A DNA stretch of 15,206 nucleotides from Candidatus Hodarchaeota archaeon (GCA_016840035.1 JAEOTC010000173.1:1-15206), one strand, 5' to 3'. Shown: positions 1,832 through 11,082, counted from the stretch's first letter. The notes: a model not told the origin generated them from the letters alone. Program-made: numbers and translations.

Positions 1832-3208
1832 ATGTCCTATGTCGAAAAAGCGTTTTGGGATTATTTGAAGTCAACACTATTCGGAGGAGTGCGGATTCTC
1901 CTATCTAGACAGTTTATTTTATTTTCTGTCATACTCTTCGTAATATCTGTTTCTACAACTGGTTTGGTTGTTATGCAAGAACAAGCGTCTGAAATTATTA
2001 CACAGGATATAATTAAACTTGCCTTCAGTCTGGAAATCAGCCTTGCTATAGGTTTTATTCTTTCTGGTCTTGTTGCTAAAAGATTAAATTTCATCTCGCG
2101 ATTGATCTTAATGTTTATCATTGTTATCATTGTTTTTGTCTTATCTGTTCTCTCCACGGGAATTGCTTTTATTAGCGATTTTATGGAATACTTTAATGAT
2201 GTTTTTCCGCTTATTGCATTTTTCTGCTGGTCTTTCTTGATACCTGTGGCCTCGTTTGCCTTTGCGAAAGGACTTTTCTCAAATAAAGTGACTGGAAGTA
2301 TTCTGTTTTTAGGAAAACCGAAAACTGAAAGAAAATCAATATTCTCAGGACTTTTAACACTTATTGCAGTATTTTCACTTGTTGGAAATGGATTAATGAT
2401 TTATTCTGGAACAATGGATTCAAGAACAAGCTATATCATTTTAGGGATTCTAGCTATTGCTGTGTCTGTTCTCATAGTATTAATAGTTCAGGGGATTCTA
2501 TTTTCTGATGATATTTTTAATTCTGTACTGGGTTTATTCTTTGTCATGATATTACCGAATCAAATAATGATTGTGTTAACCTCCATTAGTGGGTCTGAGA
2601 ACATTGTTACAAGTTTTGATTTTCTTCTTGTAGCTTTTACTCTTCTTTATAGCGCACAGAATATATCACGTAGAATTAAAGTCAAGGGAGTTACGGTAGA
2701 TGAATCAGGACAGCTTAGTAACATCAAAAACGATGATCCGTTTAGAATAGGGCGTTTTGTAGGATTTGTGGGTGGAGAAGGGATAGTTCTCATCTACTTG
2801 GGGCTTGCACTGGGGTTTCATTTGATTCAATTACAGATTCTAAATGGAACTGCGGAAATTTATCAGGATTTATTTGCAGATCTAAGTTTTTCCGAGGCGT
2901 ATCATGATATTACTTCAATTTTCTCGTTTCTAATATTCGGTATAGTTACCTTGACATATTTCCTTCAACGAGGACGAGGATACTGGGAAGCAGACATTCT
3001 TAGACTTGATTTTTTGCCCCCCTATGATGATTTAAAGGATTATATGGAACGAATAAAAAGTGGTGAGATATCAAAGACTGACATTGCTCTAACCGTTGGT
3101 AAAAAAGTCGGAAAAGGTGCAGTTAGTGCGGGAAGTTCCGGAATATTTTCTGCTGCTAAGATGTTCAGGGATAAAATATTCAGAGATTCAGATAAGAAAG
3201 AAAAATGA
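1832..3208 (+). CDS. Uncharacterised polytopic membrane protein (~10 hydrophobic segments)
   Basis: 458-aa ORF with GAGGT RBS at 1821-1825, many long hydrophobic stretches and a charged C-terminal tail. No family motif recognised. Confidence 0.8.
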   Translation: MSYVEKAFWDYLKSTLFGGVRILLSRQFILFSVILFVISVSTTGLVVMQEQASEIITQDIIKLAFSLEISLAIGFILSGLVAKRLNFISRLILMFIIVIIVFVLSVLSTGIAFISDFMEYFNDVFPLIAFFCWSFLIPVASFAFAKGLFSNKVTGSILFLGKPKTERKSIFSGLLTLIAVFSLVGNGLMIYSGTMDSRTSYIILGILAIAVSVLIVLIVQGILFSDDIFNSVLGLFFVMILPNQIMIVLTSISGSENIVTSFDFLLVAFTLLYSAQNISRRIKVKGVTVDESGQLSNIKNDDPFRIGRFVGFVGGEGIVLIYLGLALGFHLIQLQILNGTAEIYQDLFADLSFSEAYHDITSIFSFLIFGIVTLTYFLQRGRGYWEADILRLDFLPPYDDLKDYMERIKSGEISKTDIALTVGKKVGKGAVSAGSSGIFSAAKMFRDKIFRDSDKKEK

Positions 3209-4234: not shown

Positions 4235-5080
4235 ATGAAAATAATTGGAGTATTAGGCGCAGGAATAATGGGGAATGGAATAGCTCAAGCATCAGCAATA
4301 GCTGGATATGATGTAATTTTGTATGATATTGATCAGAAATTTATTGATCGTGGTTTAGGGGAAATAAAGAAGTCACTAACTCGAATGGTTAAGAAAGATA
4401 AGCTCTCCGAGAGTGATATCCCCGAGATCTTAGGAAGAATTACATCTTCACTTGACTTGAATGATTTTAAACCAAGTGACTTGATCATTGAAGCAATCCC
4501 CGAGAATATAGCACTGAAAAAAGAAACCTACAACAAACTGGATTCCATATGCTCTGCCAAATGTATTTTCGCATCCAATACTTCTGCAATTAGTATAACT
4601 GATTTAGCTTCGAAACTCCCAGAGAAACGCCAAAAAAGATTTATTGGCTTACATTTTTTTAACCCCGTTTCGATGATGAAGCTTGTAGAAGTAATTCGAG
4701 GTGAAAGGACCTCGGATAGTACGTGTGATGAATCTTTAGCTTATTGCAAGAAAATTGGGAAGGAAACTGTAATAATAAATGATTTACCAGGATTTGCGAC
4801 AACACGTCTTGTTTCAGCGGTTATTAATGAAGGTGTATATATGTTACAGGATGGGTTAGGATCACCGGAAGAAATTGATAAAGCTATCAAGCTCGGTCTT
4901 GCTCATCCAATGGGACCACTATTCTTGGCAGATTTGATTGGTTTAGATACTATTCTCCATATACTAGATTATCTGAAAGACGAATTAGGAGTAAAATTCC
5001 AAGCTGCACCTCTTTTAAGAAAAATGGTGCGAGCTGGAAAGCTCGGGCGTAAATCAGGAGAAGGATTCTATGAATATTAA
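4235..5080 (+). CDS. hbd: 3-hydroxybutyryl-CoA / 3-hydroxyacyl-CoA dehydrogenase
   Basis: Rossmann GAGIMG, EAIPE, ASNTS, catalytic GLHFFNPV...LVE, PGF, HPMGP...DLIGLD and C-terminal GKLGRKSGEGFY. AAGGAG RBS upstream. Confidence 0.95.
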   Translation: MKIIGVLGAGIMGNGIAQASAIAGYDVILYDIDQKFIDRGLGEIKKSLTRMVKKDKLSESDIPEILGRITSSLDLNDFKPSDLIIEAIPENIALKKETYNKLDSICSAKCIFASNTSAISITDLASKLPEKRQKRFIGLHFFNPVSMMKLVEVIRGERTSDSTCDESLAYCKKIGKETVIINDLPGFATTRLVSAVINEGVYMLQDGLGSPEEIDKAIKLGLAHPMGPLFLADLIGLDTILHILDYLKDELGVKFQAAPLLRKMVRAGKLGRKSGEGFYEY

Positions 5081-5211: not shown

Positions 5212-6903
5212 ATGGAGTTTCCGAAAGTAATTAGTGTTTATTCACGAACTTCAAGTGTTGGAAAGCAAACCCTTGCTCTTAATATCTTCTTATCATATGC
5301 AAAGACTAATCCCGGAACAAGAATATTAATTGTTGACTTTTCTTTAACAGAAAAACTGCGATATAGTCTTTCAAAATATGGAAAGTCACATTTTAGTAGT
5401 CTCGAATTCCTGAGTGAAATTTCTGATGATATCTTAGTTAACGAATCTCTGCTCCTAGATGAGGAAGAAAATCAAGGATCTTTTGTCAGAGTACTTCCCT
5501 CTGCGGGGTGTCAACTCAATGAAAATGGGCTTCCAGCAAAAATTAAGCATCGGGTAAACTCCTTATTTTTTAAAGATTTGATAGACATATTAGTTTTTAT
5601 CATTCCTACATCCTTGGAACAGAATTCAATTACAATGGCGACCCTTCTCGAAAGCGAAATGGTTTGGTTTATATCTACAGATAAATTCCCCTCGATTAAC
5701 TTAACTAGAACTTCAATTCAAAACTTCTTCCATTTTCTCACCGTACCAACATTATTGATAGTTAATATGATTAATCCCCCTGTTATCTTAGAGAAGGTTG
5801 AAAGCTTCTTAAAAAGCTTAGAAAATAGAGTACGCGGGCCCATATTCTATGTTATACCATGGCTCCAAGATATTCATAGTTTTACAAATAAAGGAGTTTT
5901 TGGAATAGAAAACCCCTCCTCTGGAGTAAATACAATATTTTCTGATTTTGTACTGAAATTGAAAGATGCCGTCGAAATCAGAAATCTAGGATTGGTGAAA
6001 CCTCAATCTATTACTTCTCCGCAGGCCTTGTTTATGACCGATAGATATTCTGGTACAACGATGTACTATCATTTTTTCGGCAAAGCTCAAGATGAAATGA
6101 AGAACCCTGCTCTAATTACAGCCGCATTGAGTGGGATTGCCCATATGATATCCGAAACTGCAGGGAGACAAGGAGACCTTAGGGGTATAGATAATGGTAA
6201 CTCCTATATCGATTTTCAGTATGGAAAAAACATAATTGGAATTCTTTACAGCACGAAAGAAGATAATACACTTTCAAATTTATTGCTATCCTTTACAAAA
6301 CGTTTTGAAAAGGATTTTAAGGAAGAGTTGATTGATTTCTCAAATACTGGCTCTATTGGGGGTTTTGTCAAAGCTAAGTCGCTTATCGATTCAGTATTTG
6401 AGGATTGGATATTCGAGATCAATACTGTTAACTCACAGCTCCGTGAAAACATAATAAACTATCAAGAGAACACTCAACAATCGAAGGTTGATCCTGAGGA
6501 AACCTTTCAAAATTATGTGACAGAAAATATCTCAGACTCTACTATCCACGAATTACTCTACTATGAGTTTACTACATCACACAATCAAAGACACGAATTT
6601 CTGCTGAATTTGGGGATAAATCCGAGATTAAAAAAACTTAGTATTGAGGAAGAAACTGGAAGTTCTCTTTGTGCTTGTACAGAACCACCAAAATATGTAC
6701 AGATACAGGGATTTGATGCGTTAGGATTACTCGACCTTCCAGAGAAGCTTCGCCCGACTGCAAGAGCATTATTCGCATCAAAAACATTAACTCCAGAATC
6801 AGCGGCAAAAATCACCTTCCGAGACCAAAATACCGAGTTGGAAGTTCTTGAGGAGCTAACAAGACTTGGATATGTACGAAAAATAACTCCAAATATCGGT
6901 TGA
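5212..6903 (+). CDS. Multidomain protein: degenerate MinD/ParA-like domain (aa ~1-255), longin-like domain (aa ~270-397) and C-terminal winged HTH (aa ~506-558)
   Basis: KVISVYSRTSSVGKQTLALN, RILIVDFS, VLPS, LIVNMI and VIPW follow the MinD/ParA motif order. ALFMTDRYSGTTMYYHFF...PALITAALSGIAHMISE...LRGIDNG...IIGILYS...FTKRFEKDF has the bb-a-bbb-aa longin pattern. LLDLPEKLRPTARAL...LTPESAAKITFR...LEELTRLGYVRK is a wHTH. Confidence 0.75.
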   Translation: MEFPKVISVYSRTSSVGKQTLALNIFLSYAKTNPGTRILIVDFSLTEKLRYSLSKYGKSHFSSLEFLSEISDDILVNESLLLDEEENQGSFVRVLPSAGCQLNENGLPAKIKHRVNSLFFKDLIDILVFIIPTSLEQNSITMATLLESEMVWFISTDKFPSINLTRTSIQNFFHFLTVPTLLIVNMINPPVILEKVESFLKSLENRVRGPIFYVIPWLQDIHSFTNKGVFGIENPSSGVNTIFSDFVLKLKDAVEIRNLGLVKPQSITSPQALFMTDRYSGTTMYYHFFGKAQDEMKNPALITAALSGIAHMISETAGRQGDLRGIDNGNSYIDFQYGKNIIGILYSTKEDNTLSNLLLSFTKRFEKDFKEELIDFSNTGSIGGFVKAKSLIDSVFEDWIFEINTVNSQLRENIINYQENTQQSKVDPEETFQNYVTENISDSTIHELLYYEFTTSHNQRHEFLLNLGINPRLKKLSIEEETGSSLCACTEPPKYVQIQGFDALGLLDLPEKLRPTARALFASKTLTPESAAKITFRDQNTELEVLEELTRLGYVRKITPNIG

Positions 6904-7054
6904 AAGAAAAAAACACTAATCAAATGAAATTTCTCAAGTAATTTCCATATCGTCTTAGCATCAGATGATATATATGTGCTAGAAGAAAGAAGAGTCTAAA
7001 CTGATTTATAACAGTCATACTTTCTAAAACGTGTAAAACAAGGTGAAAAAAGAG

Positions 7055-7789
7055 TTGGCTAGACAACACACGGACTATGCTAGTGTCAAGGTCGAAGATA
7101 TGATTAAAAAACGTCGAGTTTCCCCTGAACAGGACTATGAGAAGATAATTAAGAATAAAAGTCTTGTTCAAGAAATTCTTGGAAGAGTTCGTGGCAGTGA
7201 AGTAAGTAAACCAGAGCTCGAATCGACAATTAAATGGCTTGAGAGAGTATCAAAGTACATCCCAATAGCAGCTGACAAGCAATTAGAAGAGATTGTAAAA
7301 ATCATGGTTTTGCTAAGTAAAGAAAGAGCGAAACTAAATGAACTCTACGATAAACCAGGTTTAGACTTAATGAAACGCGTTCGAGAAGGAATGATTCGTT
7401 ACATGGTTGTGTTAAGCGAGCTTAGAGCTGAAAGAAATGAGTATCTAGAGCATTGGTTCACTGATGAATATTGGATTAGTGAATGGAGTCGGGTACTGCT
7501 AGATTTAGCACCTGATAACAATATGATTAAGTATGGATTCGACGATATAAAAGCAAAAGACTTTTTATTTCTTTTAGAGCTAGAACTTGCCGCTGCTGAC
7601 GATGCTTCCAGAGTTGAAAAACCTATGATTCGGTTACAACCAATTGAAAATAAGGACTCATTTTTGATCATACCAACTGAAGTTGCAGCGGAAGATTATC
7701 GACTATATGTTGACCGAATATTTAAAGGGGAAACTACTTTCACACAATGGGTAGGGGATACCTGCATTACATTAAAAATACCTAAGTAG
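7055..7789 (+). CDS. Hypothetical soluble protein, mostly helical, immediately upstream of the Rab-like GTPase
   Basis: Long charged ORF with no recognised motif. Start moved from GTG 7043, which lies inside the AGGTGA RBS (7041-7046), to TTG 7055. A TATA-like TTTATAA lies near 7003-7009. Confidence 0.75.
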   Translation: MARQHTDYASVKVEDMIKKRRVSPEQDYEKIIKNKSLVQEILGRVRGSEVSKPELESTIKWLERVSKYIPIAADKQLEEIVKIMVLLSKERAKLNELYDKPGLDLMKRVREGMIRYMVVLSELRAERNEYLEHWFTDEYWISEWSRVLLDLAPDNNMIKYGFDDIKAKDFLFLLELELAAADDASRVEKPMIRLQPIENKDSFLIIPTEVAAEDYRLYVDRIFKGETTFTQWVGDTCITLKIPK

Positions 7790-7815
7790 AATTTGATCGG
7801 AAAAAGGTGAATTAT

Positions 7816-8355
7816 ATGAGTGAAGATATTCGTTTATGGAAAATTGTCTTAGTTGGCGATGGAGCTGTTGGAAAAACATCTCTACGTAAGAGATATTTGG
7901 GTTTAGGATTTGAAACGGACTATTTAAGTACAATGGGAGCTGATTTTGCCCTTTATGATACTTCTATTGATGAAACCCAGATTAGATGGCAAATCTGGGA
8001 CTTAGCAGGCCAACCCATGTTCAAAGATGTTGTACAAGCCTATTACACAAAAATTTTTGGTGGAGTTCTAGTCTACGATGTAACACGCCGTCAAACCTTT
8101 GATAATGTTGAAAAATGGCTAAAAGATATCTGGAACAATTCTGGACGCGATAGAAATGTTCCTGTTGTCCTTCTTGCAAACAAAGTAGACTTACGTGAAG
8201 AAGGTGCGGAGACTGTTTCCACAGATGAAGGTAAGAAGCTTGCTGAAAGCCTTGGAGTTCCATTCATTGAAACTAGTGCGAAATCTGGTGAAGGGGTTGA
8301 AGCCGCGTTCAAAAAACTCGGTAAAAACATCTTAGAATTCACAAAAACGTCTTAG
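7816..8355 (+). CDS. Rab-like small GTPase (Ras superfamily), 179 aa
   Basis: G1 GDGAVGKT, G2 ST(MGADF), G3 WDLAGQ, G4 NKVD and G5 ETSAK, plus RabF-like MGADF, RWQIW, YY and LVYDVT. AGGTGA RBS at 7805-7810 favours ATG 7816 over GTG 7807. Confidence 0.95.
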   Translation: MSEDIRLWKIVLVGDGAVGKTSLRKRYLGLGFETDYLSTMGADFALYDTSIDETQIRWQIWDLAGQPMFKDVVQAYYTKIFGGVLVYDVTRRQTFDNVEKWLKDIWNNSGRDRNVPVVLLANKVDLREEGAETVSTDEGKKLAESLGVPFIETSAKSGEGVEAAFKKLGKNILEFTKTS

Positions 8356-8404
8356 AATATGCTAGCTAGAAAAGCAAGGAACGTTCAAACACTCTAGACC
8401 AAAT

Positions 8405-8860
8405 TTATTCTTGGTCCTTAATTACTGGCCTGAAAACAACATTCCTAGATCGATCAGGTGTTTCTCCATAAGTTTTAAACAGTAGATTCCTTTTCTGAAG
8501 CTCGTTCAGGTATTGACTGGTCGTGCTTCTACTTCGACCGATCTTATCCGCTACTTCCTGGGTTGTTAAAGGTCGCGGAGCTTCAGCAAGGATGTCATAA
8601 GCCCTTTTTAGCATCTCATCTTTATCATCGAAATCAACCTGAGGGGTAGGTCTTGGCCCTTCTGGGTCAGAAACGGTTACGGTTGAGATATGGTCTTGGG
8701 GAGATCCCTCTAGAAGTGATAATCTTTGGTCAATATTACTTATTTGGCTACGTACTAAGCTTAGCGAAGTCATCAGTGGATCTAATTTCTCTCCCAACTT
8801 TTTCTCCAGAAGAAGACTGATCTCCTCAAGGATGTTTGACTGGTTTTCTGAAGAATTCAT
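8405..8860 (-). CDS. Coiled-coil plus winged helix-turn-helix protein (151 aa)
   Basis: Heptad-like LEEISLLLEKKL...VRSQISNIDQRLSLLE, a Pro/Thr/Asp linker, then PLTTQEVADKIGRSRSTTSQYLNELQKRNLL (HTH). AGGAG RBS at 8871-8875 (-) favours ATG 8860 over GTG 8938. Confidence 0.85.
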   Translation of the reverse strand: MNSSENQSNILEEISLLLEKKLGEKLDPLMTSLSLVRSQISNIDQRLSLLEGSPQDHISTVTVSDPEGPRPTPQVDFDDKDEMLKRAYDILAEAPRPLTTQEVADKIGRSRSTTSQYLNELQKRNLLFKTYGETPDRSRNVVFRPVIKDQE

Positions 8861-9293
8861 AAGGTTAGTTCTCCTAATGAAGCTCTGTTTCCATTCAAAT
8901 AAAAGCATTGAGCTTCCAGAACTGAGGAAATTATCCACAAATCGAACTTCTCTAGAGATTAGAACATCTTCATCGTTAAGTCACCTTCCAAGTTAAAAAA
9001 CTGTGTACACCGATATCAAATGATTATATACAGAAAAAAAATGATGATTACCGAATAATCGGCTCTTTTTAACTTCTGGTATGCATTAAAAGAGGAATTA
9101 AATGACCTGTAATCTTAACACTCCACAAAAGCAGTGTAAAGGTTACTTTCCACTAAAAATTTTACGATTCTTAGTGATTGATTGTTTGAGAATTTGAATG
9201 CACTTTTTTGACGAAAAATGCCGTAAAATTTAGGTAACAGATTGAAAGCAAAAGGTTTTAAGGAATGATTAGTAGATTCGATAGTGATTAACA

Positions 9294-9644
9294 ATGTCCC
9301 AAGGTGCAGGTTATTTATCACATCAAGCGCTTGAAAAAGTAATAGAATCGGTTGGAAAACATAAGGGAGTGTATGGAGCAGTATTGAGTGATACCGATGG
9401 ATTACCACTACAATCAAGTCTTCCTGGTGAAGATACGGAGAGAGTTTCCGCACATGTCGCCTCTCTTGTAGGAAAAGTAAAATATATTTCAAAAGAAATT
9501 TCACAAGAGATTGCACGTAGCATCCGACTTGAATTAGAAGTCGGTGACGTTGAGATAATACCTGATTACGATTCTGAAATAATTATTATAGCTCTAGTTA
9601 AGCGAGAGAGTAGTCAAATGACGCTCACCTCAAAGGATAAATAG
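9294..9644 (+). CDS. Roadblock/LC7 (MglB/LAMTOR2/DYNLRB fold) protein, paralogue 1
   Basis: LEKVIESVGKHKGVYGAVLSDTDGLPLQS...ERVSAHVASL...SIRLELEVGDVEIIP is the typical a-b-b-a-b-b-b roadblock pattern with the GV.G....DG.P motif. Confidence 0.92.
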   Translation: MSQGAGYLSHQALEKVIESVGKHKGVYGAVLSDTDGLPLQSSLPGEDTERVSAHVASLVGKVKYISKEISQEIARSIRLELEVGDVEIIPDYDSEIIIIALVKRESSQMTLTSKDK

Positions 9645-9661
9645 ATTTAGGTGAATGAAAA

Positions 9662-9979
9662 ATGTCTGGAGAAGAATATGTCATACCGTCGGTTCTACAA
9701 AATACAATAAAGAGATTAGCAGCAAGACGGGGTGTGCGTGGGATTCTAGTCTGCGATGAAGATGGATTGCCATTACAAAGTAATTTACCTCAATCAGATG
9801 CGGAACGTGTATCTGCTCACGTTGCTTCCCTTGTAAAGAAAGTACGAAGTGTCTCTGATGCGCTAAATCACGGCAAGCTCCAGTCTGTTTATGTTGAAAT
9901 GCCTCAATCTGAAATTATCATCACTCCTGATGAAGCTGCGGGATTTACTATCGTTGTTCTAAAAGATAGATCTTATTAG
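9662..9979 (+). CDS. Roadblock/LC7 protein, paralogue 2 (dynein light chain roadblock-like)
   Basis: LQNTIKRLAARRGVRGILVCDEDGLPLQS...EIIITPD..FTIVVL. AGGTGA RBS at 9649-9654; 17 bp after paralogue 1. Confidence 0.92.
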   Translation: MSGEEYVIPSVLQNTIKRLAARRGVRGILVCDEDGLPLQSNLPQSDAERVSAHVASLVKKVRSVSDALNHGKLQSVYVEMPQSEIIITPDEAAGFTIVVLKDRSY

Positions 9980-10212
9980 GTCTTGTTCTCATTAGCTACA
10001 TTTCTTCTTTATTATCAGTAGTTTTTTCGTAAATTTACTGATTTTTTCCCTTCTATAAACTCGGATGTCTGGTATAACTTTTTCTACATAAATTCTGGAT
10101 TATTCTATAAATTTCTTTAATGCAGATGCCGTTATGATTGCCATAAAACAATCTTTTTCTTAATGTGGTAAATATTATGACCACATCCTAGTAATTATGT
10201 TATTGTATGTAG

Positions 10213-11082
10213 ATGATTTTTATGGATCACAATGAGGAATCACAGGTAATAGGGTATTGTGGGGAATGTGGGAAAAAATTAATAGCAAACGCGACATTTT
10301 GTGCTTATTGTGGTGCTCCCATACCTAAAATTGGGGGTTTTATTCCTCCCCAAGCCAATATCCCTTATACAATAACCAATACGCGAGAAGTTAGTCCACC
10401 TCAACCTTTTTTATCAAATTTTCTCAACGTGATATCCACCCCTAAAGAAAAAATGCCTGGAATTGCCTCTTCTCCGAACTTATCCCAACCTCTACTAGTT
10501 AACATTATAATAGGCATCTTAGCATTCATTGCGATGTCAATATTAATATATAATTCTACTGTATCACTAGATGCTTCACTTCTTACCCTTATTCCCAGTG
10601 ACGAGTTGAGTGTGCAAGAATTTACAGATTTGTTTAAAATATCTATTCCATTTTCTGCCCCAATAGTTATTCTACTGAACTGGCTAATTTTAAGTTTGAT
10701 TCTATGGATATTACATGCATTTTTTGCATCAGATCTGAGTTCATATGATCGAGATTTTAAAACAATGGCTACAATCGTAGGTTGGGCTCAGATCCCTAAT
10801 ATATTCCATCAACTTGTTACGATTGTTGTTCATTATTTTGTTCTGTCTCCTGGAGGAGAAATCAATATAGGATCCTTTGGACAAATGGAAATCACCCCTC
10901 CTGCGGGAAGTTCAGATATTTTATCTAGAACTATCCTTTATGGATCTGGGATCCTATTCATCTTCTGGAGTCTCGTTTTAATATACTATGGGATAAAATC
11001 TTTAGGATCCGATAAAGCGAATCCAGTGACTATTTGTTCGATCTATGGCGTACTTAGAATTGTCCTATTTTTCTTTTTTTAA
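10213..11082 (+). CDS. Zinc-ribbon plus Yip1-family membrane protein
   Basis: N-terminal CGECG-x8-FCAYCG, then NVISTPKE (Yip1 N-terminal 'vl..P.e' helix), about 5 TM segments, FKTMATIVGWAQIP and WSLVLIYYGIK as in prokaryotic Yip1 proteins. The start may be ATG 10222. Confidence 0.8.
   Translation: MIFMDHNEESQVIGYCGECGKKLIANATFCAYCGAPIPKIGGFIPPQANIPYTITNTREVSPPQPFLSNFLNVISTPKEKMPGIASSPNLSQPLLVNIIIGILAFIAMSILIYNSTVSLDASLLTLIPSDELSVQEFTDLFKISIPFSAPIVILLNWLILSLILWILHAFFASDLSSYDRDFKTMATIVGWAQIPNIFHQLVTIVVHYFVLSPGGEINIGSFGQMEITPPAGSSDILSRTILYGSGILFIFWSLVLIYYGIKSLGSDKANPVTICSIYGVLRIVLFFFF

Follow-up and report, generated by a model that had tools for sequence, protein, structure and literature searches.

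A Rab-like GTPase gene and a lineage-specific candidate partner in a Hodarchaeales neighborhood of longin, roadblock and Yip1 genes

Asgard archaeal genomes encode dozens of small GTPases, and the assignment of regulators to them is mostly unclear since the genes concerned are rarely linked. Liu et al. observed that most Asgard genes for eukaryotic signature proteins (ESPs) are not in conserved neighborhoods (bioRxiv 10.1101/2020.10.19.343400). The same study described one conserved Asgard operon, in which genes for a LAMTOR1-like roadblock protein, a Rab-like GTPase and a DENN protein stand together, and proposed a module of the guanine nucleotide exchange factor (GEF) type (bioRxiv 10.1101/2020.10.19.343400). 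For the archaeon MK-D1, Tran et al. reported that GTPase genes generally do not share operons with genes for roadblock, longin or TRAPPC3 proteins and that pairing them is hard (PMC10933270). Here, a 15,206-nucleotide stretch from the genome of a Candidatus Hodarchaeota archaeon (GCA_016840035.1, JAEOTC010000173.1:1-15206), referred to below as the window, is described, in which a Rab-like GTPase gene directly follows the gene for an orphan protein, g248. The two genes form an operon that represents a real conserved pair, and complex modeling indicates that their products probably interact physically.

As in the operon of Liu et al., the window places a Rab-like Asgard GTPase beside genes of the roadblock superfamily and a further putative regulator. 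Here, however, the partner is the helical and winged-helix protein g248, a DENN domain was not found with Pfam or with fold searches of g248, and the roadblock genes belong to a separate transcription unit. By analogy, the locus also recalls the MglA-MglB and Rag-Ragulator systems, in that two roadblock genes, whose products would probably dimerize, are located within 1 kb of the GTPase gene; unlike in those systems, the GTPase is Rab-like rather than MglA- or Rag-like, and the roadblock genes are not co-transcribed with it. In actinobacterial conservons (CvnA-D), roadblock, helix-turn-helix (HTH) and small-GTPase genes are likewise found near each other, whereas the open reading frames (ORFs) of the window gave no matches to the kinase-like CvnA or to DUF742 and occupy both strands instead of a single operon.

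The stop codon of g248 and the start of the GTPase gene are separated by 17 bp, and the GTG start assigned to g248 agrees with the ATG starts of its orthologs. Across the genus, represented by about 21 species genomes, the g248-GTPase order is kept in nine species; mapped onto a tree of g563, the protein encoded upstream of g248, the presence of g248 at this locus looks ancestral, with loss in two clades. The pair is also present in other surroundings. G265, a genome of the sister family, has a g248-like gene (30% identical) and a GTPase gene (54% identical) whose start it overlaps by 4 bp, both upstream of genes for proteasome alpha, SBDS, Rrp4 and Rrp41. In a third context, found on two contigs between genes for an FGGY kinase and for AFOR (aldehyde:ferredoxin oxidoreductase) and a thiamine pyrophosphate (TPP) enzyme, a protein 38% identical to g248 (P0077) is followed 15 bp downstream by a GTPase 50% identical to that of the window (P0003). 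Furthermore, P0078 constitutes one open frame of 409 aa, in which a g248-like part (about residues 40-215) precedes a Ras domain (residues 242-401, Pfam 5.6e-38). The contexts of P0079 and P0083, on contigs shorter than 2 kb, were uninformative. Fusions of Rag GTPases with roadblock domains are known, as are GTPase-roadblock (RB) and RB-GTPase architectures in Asgards (PMC10933270); P0078 similarly joins a partner domain to its G domain, but the fused domain is neither roadblock nor longin and belongs to a family without known relatives. In phylogenetic analysis, the g248-linked GTPases form one subfamily (Shimodaira-Hasegawa-like approximate likelihood ratio test, SH-aLRT, 92), along with two other paralogs of the host genome (G000).

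A model of the complex was prepared with alignments for both chains, with GTP and Mg included and with three controls. The complex score was 0.67 (single runs, 0.36, 0.70 and 0.67), whereas the best of the three controls scored 0.00. In a calibration that is only rough here, given the custom alignments and the presence of GTP and Mg, 58 of 80 solved complexes attained the 0.67 mark, as did two of 110 mismatched pairs. The runs share at least 40% of their contacts, and the predicted local distance difference test (pLDDT) value of the partner is at least 76. On the GTPase side, the predicted interface comprises the P-loop (residues 19-20), switch I (39-47), the interswitch strands (60-64) and switch II (69-79); on the g248 side, it comprises helices around residues 46-65 and 88-107 and a loop at 186-188. 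In the family alignment, conservation is at least 93% for each of the g248 residues S92, R95, D103, W65, M88, L107 and D186 in this interface, with S92 and R95 invariant. Since g248 has no solved relative, it is unlikely that the prediction passes by reproducing a known structure. The model thus supports, but does not show, binding of g248 to the GTPase. A preliminary description of the locus, drawn from the sequence, had named g248 (as the '7055 protein') as a possible partner of the GTPase to be examined by complex prediction; the dedicated partnership is now well supported by the repeated adjacency (three contexts), the P0078 fusion and the interface predicted over the switch regions (0.67 against 0.00 for the best control).

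The GTPase is a clear member of the Ras superfamily, with a Pfam Ras score of 161 bits against a cut-off of 21.6 and with motifs G1 to G5 intact (GDGAVGKT, T42, WDLAGQ, NKVD and ETSAK); across its orthologs, GDGAVGKT, T42, DLAGQ, NKVD and SAK are invariant. The closest solved chain is a Thorarchaeota Rab (5.8e-41), followed by Ypt6, Rab11A, Rab1 and Rab8. The protein ends in ...EFTKTS and thus carries no C-terminal Cys prenylation motif, as is usual for Asgard Rab-like proteins.

A profile search for g248 across 1.84 billion representative proteins returned only 12 matches at E ≤ 0.001, no Pfam family recurs among 29 members of the family, and NCBIfam gave weak, sub-threshold matches only, for g248 as for g563. 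Likewise, no DENN family was matched at E ≤ 1 in the 29 members, and no DENN chain is among the fold matches listed. The structural model of g248 is good (pLDDT, 86.7; predicted template modeling score, pTM, 0.85), yet a Foldseek search of the PDB gave no match at E ≤ 0.001, and all atlas rows had template modeling (TM) scores below 0.6. Winged-helix domains match residues 100-238 at Z 7-7.8, among them those of MarR and ORC types and the winged helices of kleisins (MukF, JetA, ScpA and Scc1); the best structural rows also include cullin winged helices, and a likeness to the PadR type was noted. At such Z values, the modeled resemblance is one of common fold only. Residues 100-248 have a pI of 4.7 and a net charge of -9.

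From these data, the following mechanism can be proposed. The two-gene operon would supply the Rab-like GTPase with a dedicated nucleotide-state partner, with g248 predicted to bind over both switches, the strands between them and the P-loop. This protein would act as a regulator of the GEF, GTPase-activating protein (GAP) or guanine nucleotide dissociation inhibitor (GDI)-like type, or else as a state-specific effector; since g248 is predicted to cover both switches and the P-loop, an exchange factor, an activating protein, a GDI-like chaperone and a state-specific effector are all possible. A Rab-like GTPase subfamily with a dedicated, co-inherited and once-fused partner, whose predicted interface lies on the nucleotide-sensing switches, offers a concrete pair for assays. 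The novelty lies in the lineage-specific g248 partner family, as the logic of a GTPase with a linked partner is already known. Hodarchaeales are usually placed closest to eukaryotes. If g248 is indeed a regulator, it would represent a non-eukaryotic solution to Rab control and bear on the GEF/GAP repertoire before eukaryogenesis. A more ambitious proposal, which we consider distinctly unlikely, is that g248 represents an undescribed class of proteins that regulate Rab-like GTPases at their switch regions (GEF-, GAP- or GDI-like), with an acidic winged helix as scaffold and an origin in the Hodarchaeales. Within this genus, g248 would then cooperate with the pseudo-MinD-longin protein g563, a heterodimer of Robl1 and Robl2 and the Zn-ribbon-Yip1 protein, making up a full archaeal machinery for the Rab cycle.

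The pair lies within a stretch of seven genes (Table 1) on contig C144 of an Asgard genome (4.3 Mb, 87% complete) assigned to Hodarchaeales; homologs of the window proteins carry the labels Candidatus Hodarchaeales, Hodarchaeota or Heimdallarchaeota. An ORF map confirmed the seven genes of the preliminary description and the lack of any metabolic gene among them. The domain identities that it had given were borne out by Pfam and by superposition for the longin fold, with ortholog profile matches pointing to a MinD/ParA-like domain, and its view that the genes are not one operon also holds, as four or five transcription units, with one gene on the opposite strand, can be distinguished. The winged HTH (wHTH) gene converges on the GTPase gene, and a 355-bp spacer (8939-9293) separates it from the divergently oriented Robl1. 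Runs of T directly follow Robl2, and TATA-like AT-rich boxes stand ahead of the Yip1 gene, as read by eye in the spacer between the two; the T-rich stretch is probably terminator-like, with Yip1 probably having its own promoter region. A bacterial-type promoter and terminator scan was set aside, as its counts did not exceed shuffled expectation and the method is unsuited to an archaeon.

Table 1. Genes of the seven-gene stretch and the spacer preceding the Yip1 gene, in window coordinates.
Feature	Position	Strand	Remarks
g563: MinD/ParA-like, longin and probable wHTH	5212..6903	+	563 aa
g248: orphan, with basic helical N-terminal half and acidic winged-helix-like C-terminal half	7043..7789	+	248 aa
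Rab-like small GTPase	7807..8355	+	Pfam Ras 1.8e-47
Coiled-coil and wHTH protein	8405..8938	-	Pfam HTH_IclR, HTH_24 and MarR_2, residues 107-155
Robl1, Roadblock/LC7 paralog 1	9294..9644	+	Pfam Robl_LC7 6.9e-13
Robl2, Roadblock/LC7 paralog 2	9662..9979	+	Pfam Robl_LC7 4.6e-17
T-rich spacer between Robl2 and Yip1	9980..10212	+	probable transcription-unit boundary, read from sequence
Zn-ribbon and Yip1 polytopic membrane protein	10213..11082	+	Pfam Yip1 8.3e-13, Zn_Ribbon_1 1.2e-6

Within the genus, the order g563, g248 (where present), GTPase, wHTH gene (minus strand), Robl1, Robl2 and Yip1 (where present) is kept in about 20 species. The flanking RDD, MazG, FolE2, HCDH (3-hydroxyacyl-CoA dehydrogenase), RibD_C, lyase, Maf and HTH genes are equally collinear, so the order of the block reflects general collinearity rather than selective retention. 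The block itself varies: two clades lack g248 at the locus, two species (G292 and G211) lack Yip1, and in G211 an insertion of 3 kb also separates the wHTH gene from Robl1. In one genus member, G119, neither the locus nor the flanking FolE2 and RibD_C genes were found; this region was probably unassembled or lost as a larger piece, which says nothing on natural deletion. Beyond the genus, the parts lie apart. The roadblock pair of G265 is on a different contig from its g248-like and GTPase genes, behind two unknown genes, and in the second sister-family genome, G286, the roadblock pair is followed by genes for an unrelated-looking membrane protein (P0072) and a haloacid dehalogenase (HAD) hydrolase. 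Next to a 45%-identical homolog of g563, HCDH is still found upstream, with a convergent gene for a Hel308-type helicase taking the place of the GTPase gene. For the single roadblock genes and the Yip1 genes of more distant families in the class, no other window gene was found within 1.5 kb. Two candidate remnants in the sister family were rejected: P0072, a multi-pass protein encoded after Robl2, as a diverged Yip1 (BLASTP not significant; hhalign probability 2.9%, E 0.015), and P0074, a C-terminal fragment upstream of the G265 g248-like gene, as the C-terminus of g563, to which similarity was not found. The preliminary description had set conserved synteny beyond very close relatives as a test of its proposal. 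For the block as a whole, synteny is confined to one genus; for the g248-GTPase pair, it extends to other contexts.

For the pair, two other explanations were weighed. One holds that g248 is a winged-helix transcription factor controlling the GTPase gene, such that their adjacency reflects a regulator and its target rather than a complex. A likeness of residues 100-238 to MarR, PadR and ORC winged helices (Z 6-7.8) would fit this view, as would the occurrence of paralogs in unrelated contexts, in the manner of local regulators. However, the acidic winged-helix half is poor for DNA binding, one homolog is fused in frame to a GTPase, the predicted interface lies over the switch regions with controls at 0.00, and the best structural rows include the protein-binding winged helices of MukF, JetA, ScpA, Scc1 and cullins; a transcription factor is thus very unlikely. 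The other attributes the entire neighborhood, g248 and the GTPase included, to chance or to history alone, from families abundant in Asgards. A profile search of the host genome gave 61 Ras-family matches, Asgard GTPase genes are generally outside operons with regulators (PMC10933270), and most Asgard ESP genes are outside conserved neighborhoods (bioRxiv 10.1101/2020.10.19.343400). Nevertheless, a g248-like gene stands directly upstream of one GTPase subfamily in three contexts and is fused to it once, the g248 family is so tiny that repeated chance adjacency is very unlikely, and the complex prediction passes its controls; this explanation is already disfavored, and its chance of being correct is slight indeed. 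The dedicated partnership of g248 and the GTPase has its own difficulties, which together count against it. The P0078 fusion is known from a single contig of a single Logan assembly (SRR21285597). About half of the genus species have no g248 between g563 and the GTPase, and each genus genome holds one to four further g248 paralogs away from any GTPase; the partner is thus not obligatory in cis. One of the three complex runs reached only 0.36, and in the family alignment the interface set is not more conserved than the remaining g248 residues (p = 0.84).

For the larger block, the preliminary description had proposed a single GEF-like/GTPase/GAP-like/membrane-anchor module, that is, one small-GTPase switch in which the longin domain of g563 is GEF-like, the roadblock dimer is a GAP or scaffold, Yip1 is the anchor and the MinD-like and wHTH domains provide the output. 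Every family type required is present, and the block order is found in about 20 genus species. When roadblock and Yip1 loci were placed at random, a Ras gene had both within 3 kb in 0.13% of trials (a post hoc test), and both Yip1 genes of the host genome are within 3 kb of Ras-family genes (P = 0.0045). A second roadblock-GTPase-roadblock operon is present in the same genome, and longin-like and roadblock neighbors recur in other Asgards. On the other side stand the equal collinearity of the flanking metabolic genes, the scattering of the parts outside the genus (sister family and one more distant relative), the four or five transcription units on two strands, the absence of Yip1 from two species and of g248 from two clades, and the Yip1 loci of other families of the class, which with the queries used show no GTPase or roadblock gene within 1.5 kb. 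The genome has 61 Ras-family and 10 roadblock matches, and an action of the Robl pair or g563 on the neighboring GTPase would be hypothetical. An integrated switch is therefore unlikely, and the claim of one module is not supported by synteny, given a block restricted to one genus, flanks as collinear as the block and parts that lie apart elsewhere. It is reasonably likely that the seven-gene stretch is instead a genus-level juxtaposition of separable units, not one operon. This negative result also matters: the attractive idea of a seven-gene 'proto-trafficking locus' does not describe a conserved unit, and it ought not to be cited in that sense.

Among these separable units, the roadblock genes form a bicistronic operon, in which Robl2 starts 17 bp after Robl1. 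Both products are well supported by Pfam (48.6 bits for Robl1 and 62.0 bits for Robl2 against a cut-off of 23) and are 40% identical to each other. The tandem is order-wide: of 21 genus genomes, 20 carry it, as do both of the sister-family genomes that were searched. Across the genus, identity is 82-100% for Robl1 and 87-100% for Robl2, well above the values for g563, the wHTH protein and Yip1, and Robl2 is still 54% identical in the sister family; in species whose g563 is only about 85% identical, the two roadblock proteins are 96-100% identical. These values point to purifying selection that is unusually strong for such small proteins, and such very high conservation suggests a hub that serves more than one GTPase. 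Most likely, by analogy, Robl1 and Robl2 would form a roadblock heterodimer that acts as a GTPase platform, as in MglB and Ragulator, and MglB and LAMTOR chains are among the structural neighbors of the roadblock/longin superfamily. The roadblock-GTPase-roadblock operon elsewhere in the host genome (contig C112, L101:3419-5536, minus strand) is a run of roadblock, Arf/Ras-like GTPase and roadblock (LAMTOR3/MP1-like) genes beside a gene for a tetratricopeptide repeat (TPR) protein.

The roadblock pair may also work with a longin-domain protein such as g563. In another Asgard family, membrane proteins of about 530 aa resembling the major facilitator superfamily (MFS) carry a C-terminal domain about 40% identical to residues 290-397 of g563, and a roadblock gene adjoins the membrane-longin gene in nine of ten loci; the combination looks like a conserved pair in that family, as judged from gene order. 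In the two loci of this set (L060-L068) whose next gene was scanned, L064 and L066, an Rpb7-like gene follows. In G265, a 256-aa protein encoded directly upstream of Robl1-Robl2 showed a weak match to the longin region (BLASTP E 0.022, hhalign E 0.0033).

No Pfam family was found above its cut-off in g563, and its architecture was assigned from several sources: a MinD/ParA-like domain at about residues 1-255, a longin domain at 267-400, an acidic helical linker and a probable wHTH at 494-558. The MinD-longin-wHTH architecture of the preliminary description is thereby corroborated, with superposition identifying the longin domain, ortholog profiles pointing to a MinD/ParA-like domain and secondary structure to a probable wHTH. 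An AlphaFold model, built with an 18-ortholog alignment, was good over the C-terminal half, whereas the N-terminal half came out poorly. Residues 267-400, with a pLDDT of only 40-80, superpose on longin domains (VIA Z 13.3 for TRAPPC4; root mean square deviation, 2.4; 124 residues aligned), and all 50 superposition rows listed are longin proteins, among them TRAPPC4, Fuzzy, VAMP7, Sec22b, AP sigma, Mon1/Ccz1 and BLOC-3. Their DSSP order is beta-beta-alpha-beta-beta-beta-alpha-alpha. With sequence profiles, no longin-type Pfam family was matched at E ≤ 1 in the 18 orthologs. Longin Rab GEFs, such as Mon1-Ccz1, TRAPP, Fuzzy-Inturned (CPLANE) and BLOC-3, share the fold, on which the modeled g563 domain superposes at Z 10-13; in contrast to these, g563 combines just one longin domain with a degenerate MinD/ParA domain and a wHTH in the same chain, an architecture found only in Hodarchaeales.

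At the N-terminus of g563, PF01656 matches seven of the 18 orthologs, with a best E of 5.3e-6; the window protein itself (P0001) reached E 0.025 and 15 bits against a cut-off of 25.4. The N-terminal profile also reached the P-loop of the CapB tyrosine kinase at E 0.004, with the model of this part being of low confidence. Some homologs are named MinD-like by JGI, one of which carries PF01656. The Walker A motif reads SRT(P/S)xxGK(K/Q)T, in which GK(K/Q)T is kept and the signature Lys and GG of KGGxGK[ST] are replaced, and a Walker B Asp was not seen in the 18-ortholog alignment, where the strand at 126-132 ends in ...FI(L/I)P. Owing to the deviant Walker A signature and the lack of a conserved Walker B Asp, the N-terminus is a probable pseudo-ATPase, and from its sequence the domain is probably catalytically dead. 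Residues 494-558 display helix-turn-helix-plus-strand secondary structure, with pLDDT values of 80-89. Full-length homologs were found only in Hodarchaeales (65 matches, each at least 45% identical), with 54-85% identity within the genus. As far as gene order can tell, the link between g563 and the GTPase is one of adjacency within the genus only.

The Yip1 protein of the window scored 49 bits against a cut-off of 28.6 and has hydrophobic segments at residues 88-121, 137-178, 239-266 and 269-290. It evolves fast, with 30-56% identity in the genus. Two Yip1 types are present in the genus: a Zn-ribbon type, found only there and always between Robl2 and RibD_C, and a shorter type, which is common to the genus and the sister family and is the only one found outside the genus. 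The Pfam Yip1 family also matches seven of 14 control bacteria and archaea, and Yip1-domain proteins are known in all three domains; membership alone thus does not imply Rab binding. The Zn-ribbon-Yip1 protein would be a separately transcribed, dispensable neighbor of the roadblock pair. For Hodarchaeia, an endosomal sorting complex required for transport (ESCRT)-ubiquitin cluster with Yip1 and a Rab-like GTPase has been described (bioRxiv 10.1101/2023.07.25.550441). Like the window, that cluster, from the same lineage, combines a Yip1 gene with a nearby gene for a Rab-like GTPase, but its Yip1 is of the shorter type, whereas the Zn-ribbon-Yip1 of the window is restricted to the genus and lies beside the roadblock pair. 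The host copy of the cluster is on contig C184 (L100:2732-12050), with genes for VPS28, a ubiquitin E2 variant (UEV)/E2-like protein, a protein of 404 aa that has a Ras domain at its C-terminus, PAP2, the shorter Yip1, a ThiF-type E1, KaiC and an Arf-like GTPase.

The coiled-coil and wHTH protein encoded between the GTPase and roadblock genes is also fast-evolving, with 31-78% identity within the genus, and is probably a local transcription regulator. As to further copies of g248, the second paralog of the host genome (45% identical; contig C227, L102:4989-5717, minus strand) is located on the opposite strand within an oligopeptide ATP-binding cassette (ABC) transporter cluster, between the ATPase and permease genes. 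In G292 (C76:5979-6713, L006), the g248 ortholog has one in-frame TAA and may be a pseudogene or reflect a sequencing error.

The flanks of the block belong to ordinary metabolism, with FolE2 and HCDH upstream of the block and RibD_C, a beta-eliminating lyase and Maf downstream. Beside FolE2, a 458-aa ORF (1832-3208) has no Pfam family at E ≤ 0.01 and is 57-85% identical across the genus. The HCDH gene (4235-5080) is full-length in the window, while fragments of 40, 176 and 51 aligned residues are found in related species (L031, L032 and L034, respectively), a pattern that suggests repeated decay of this gene in the three species.

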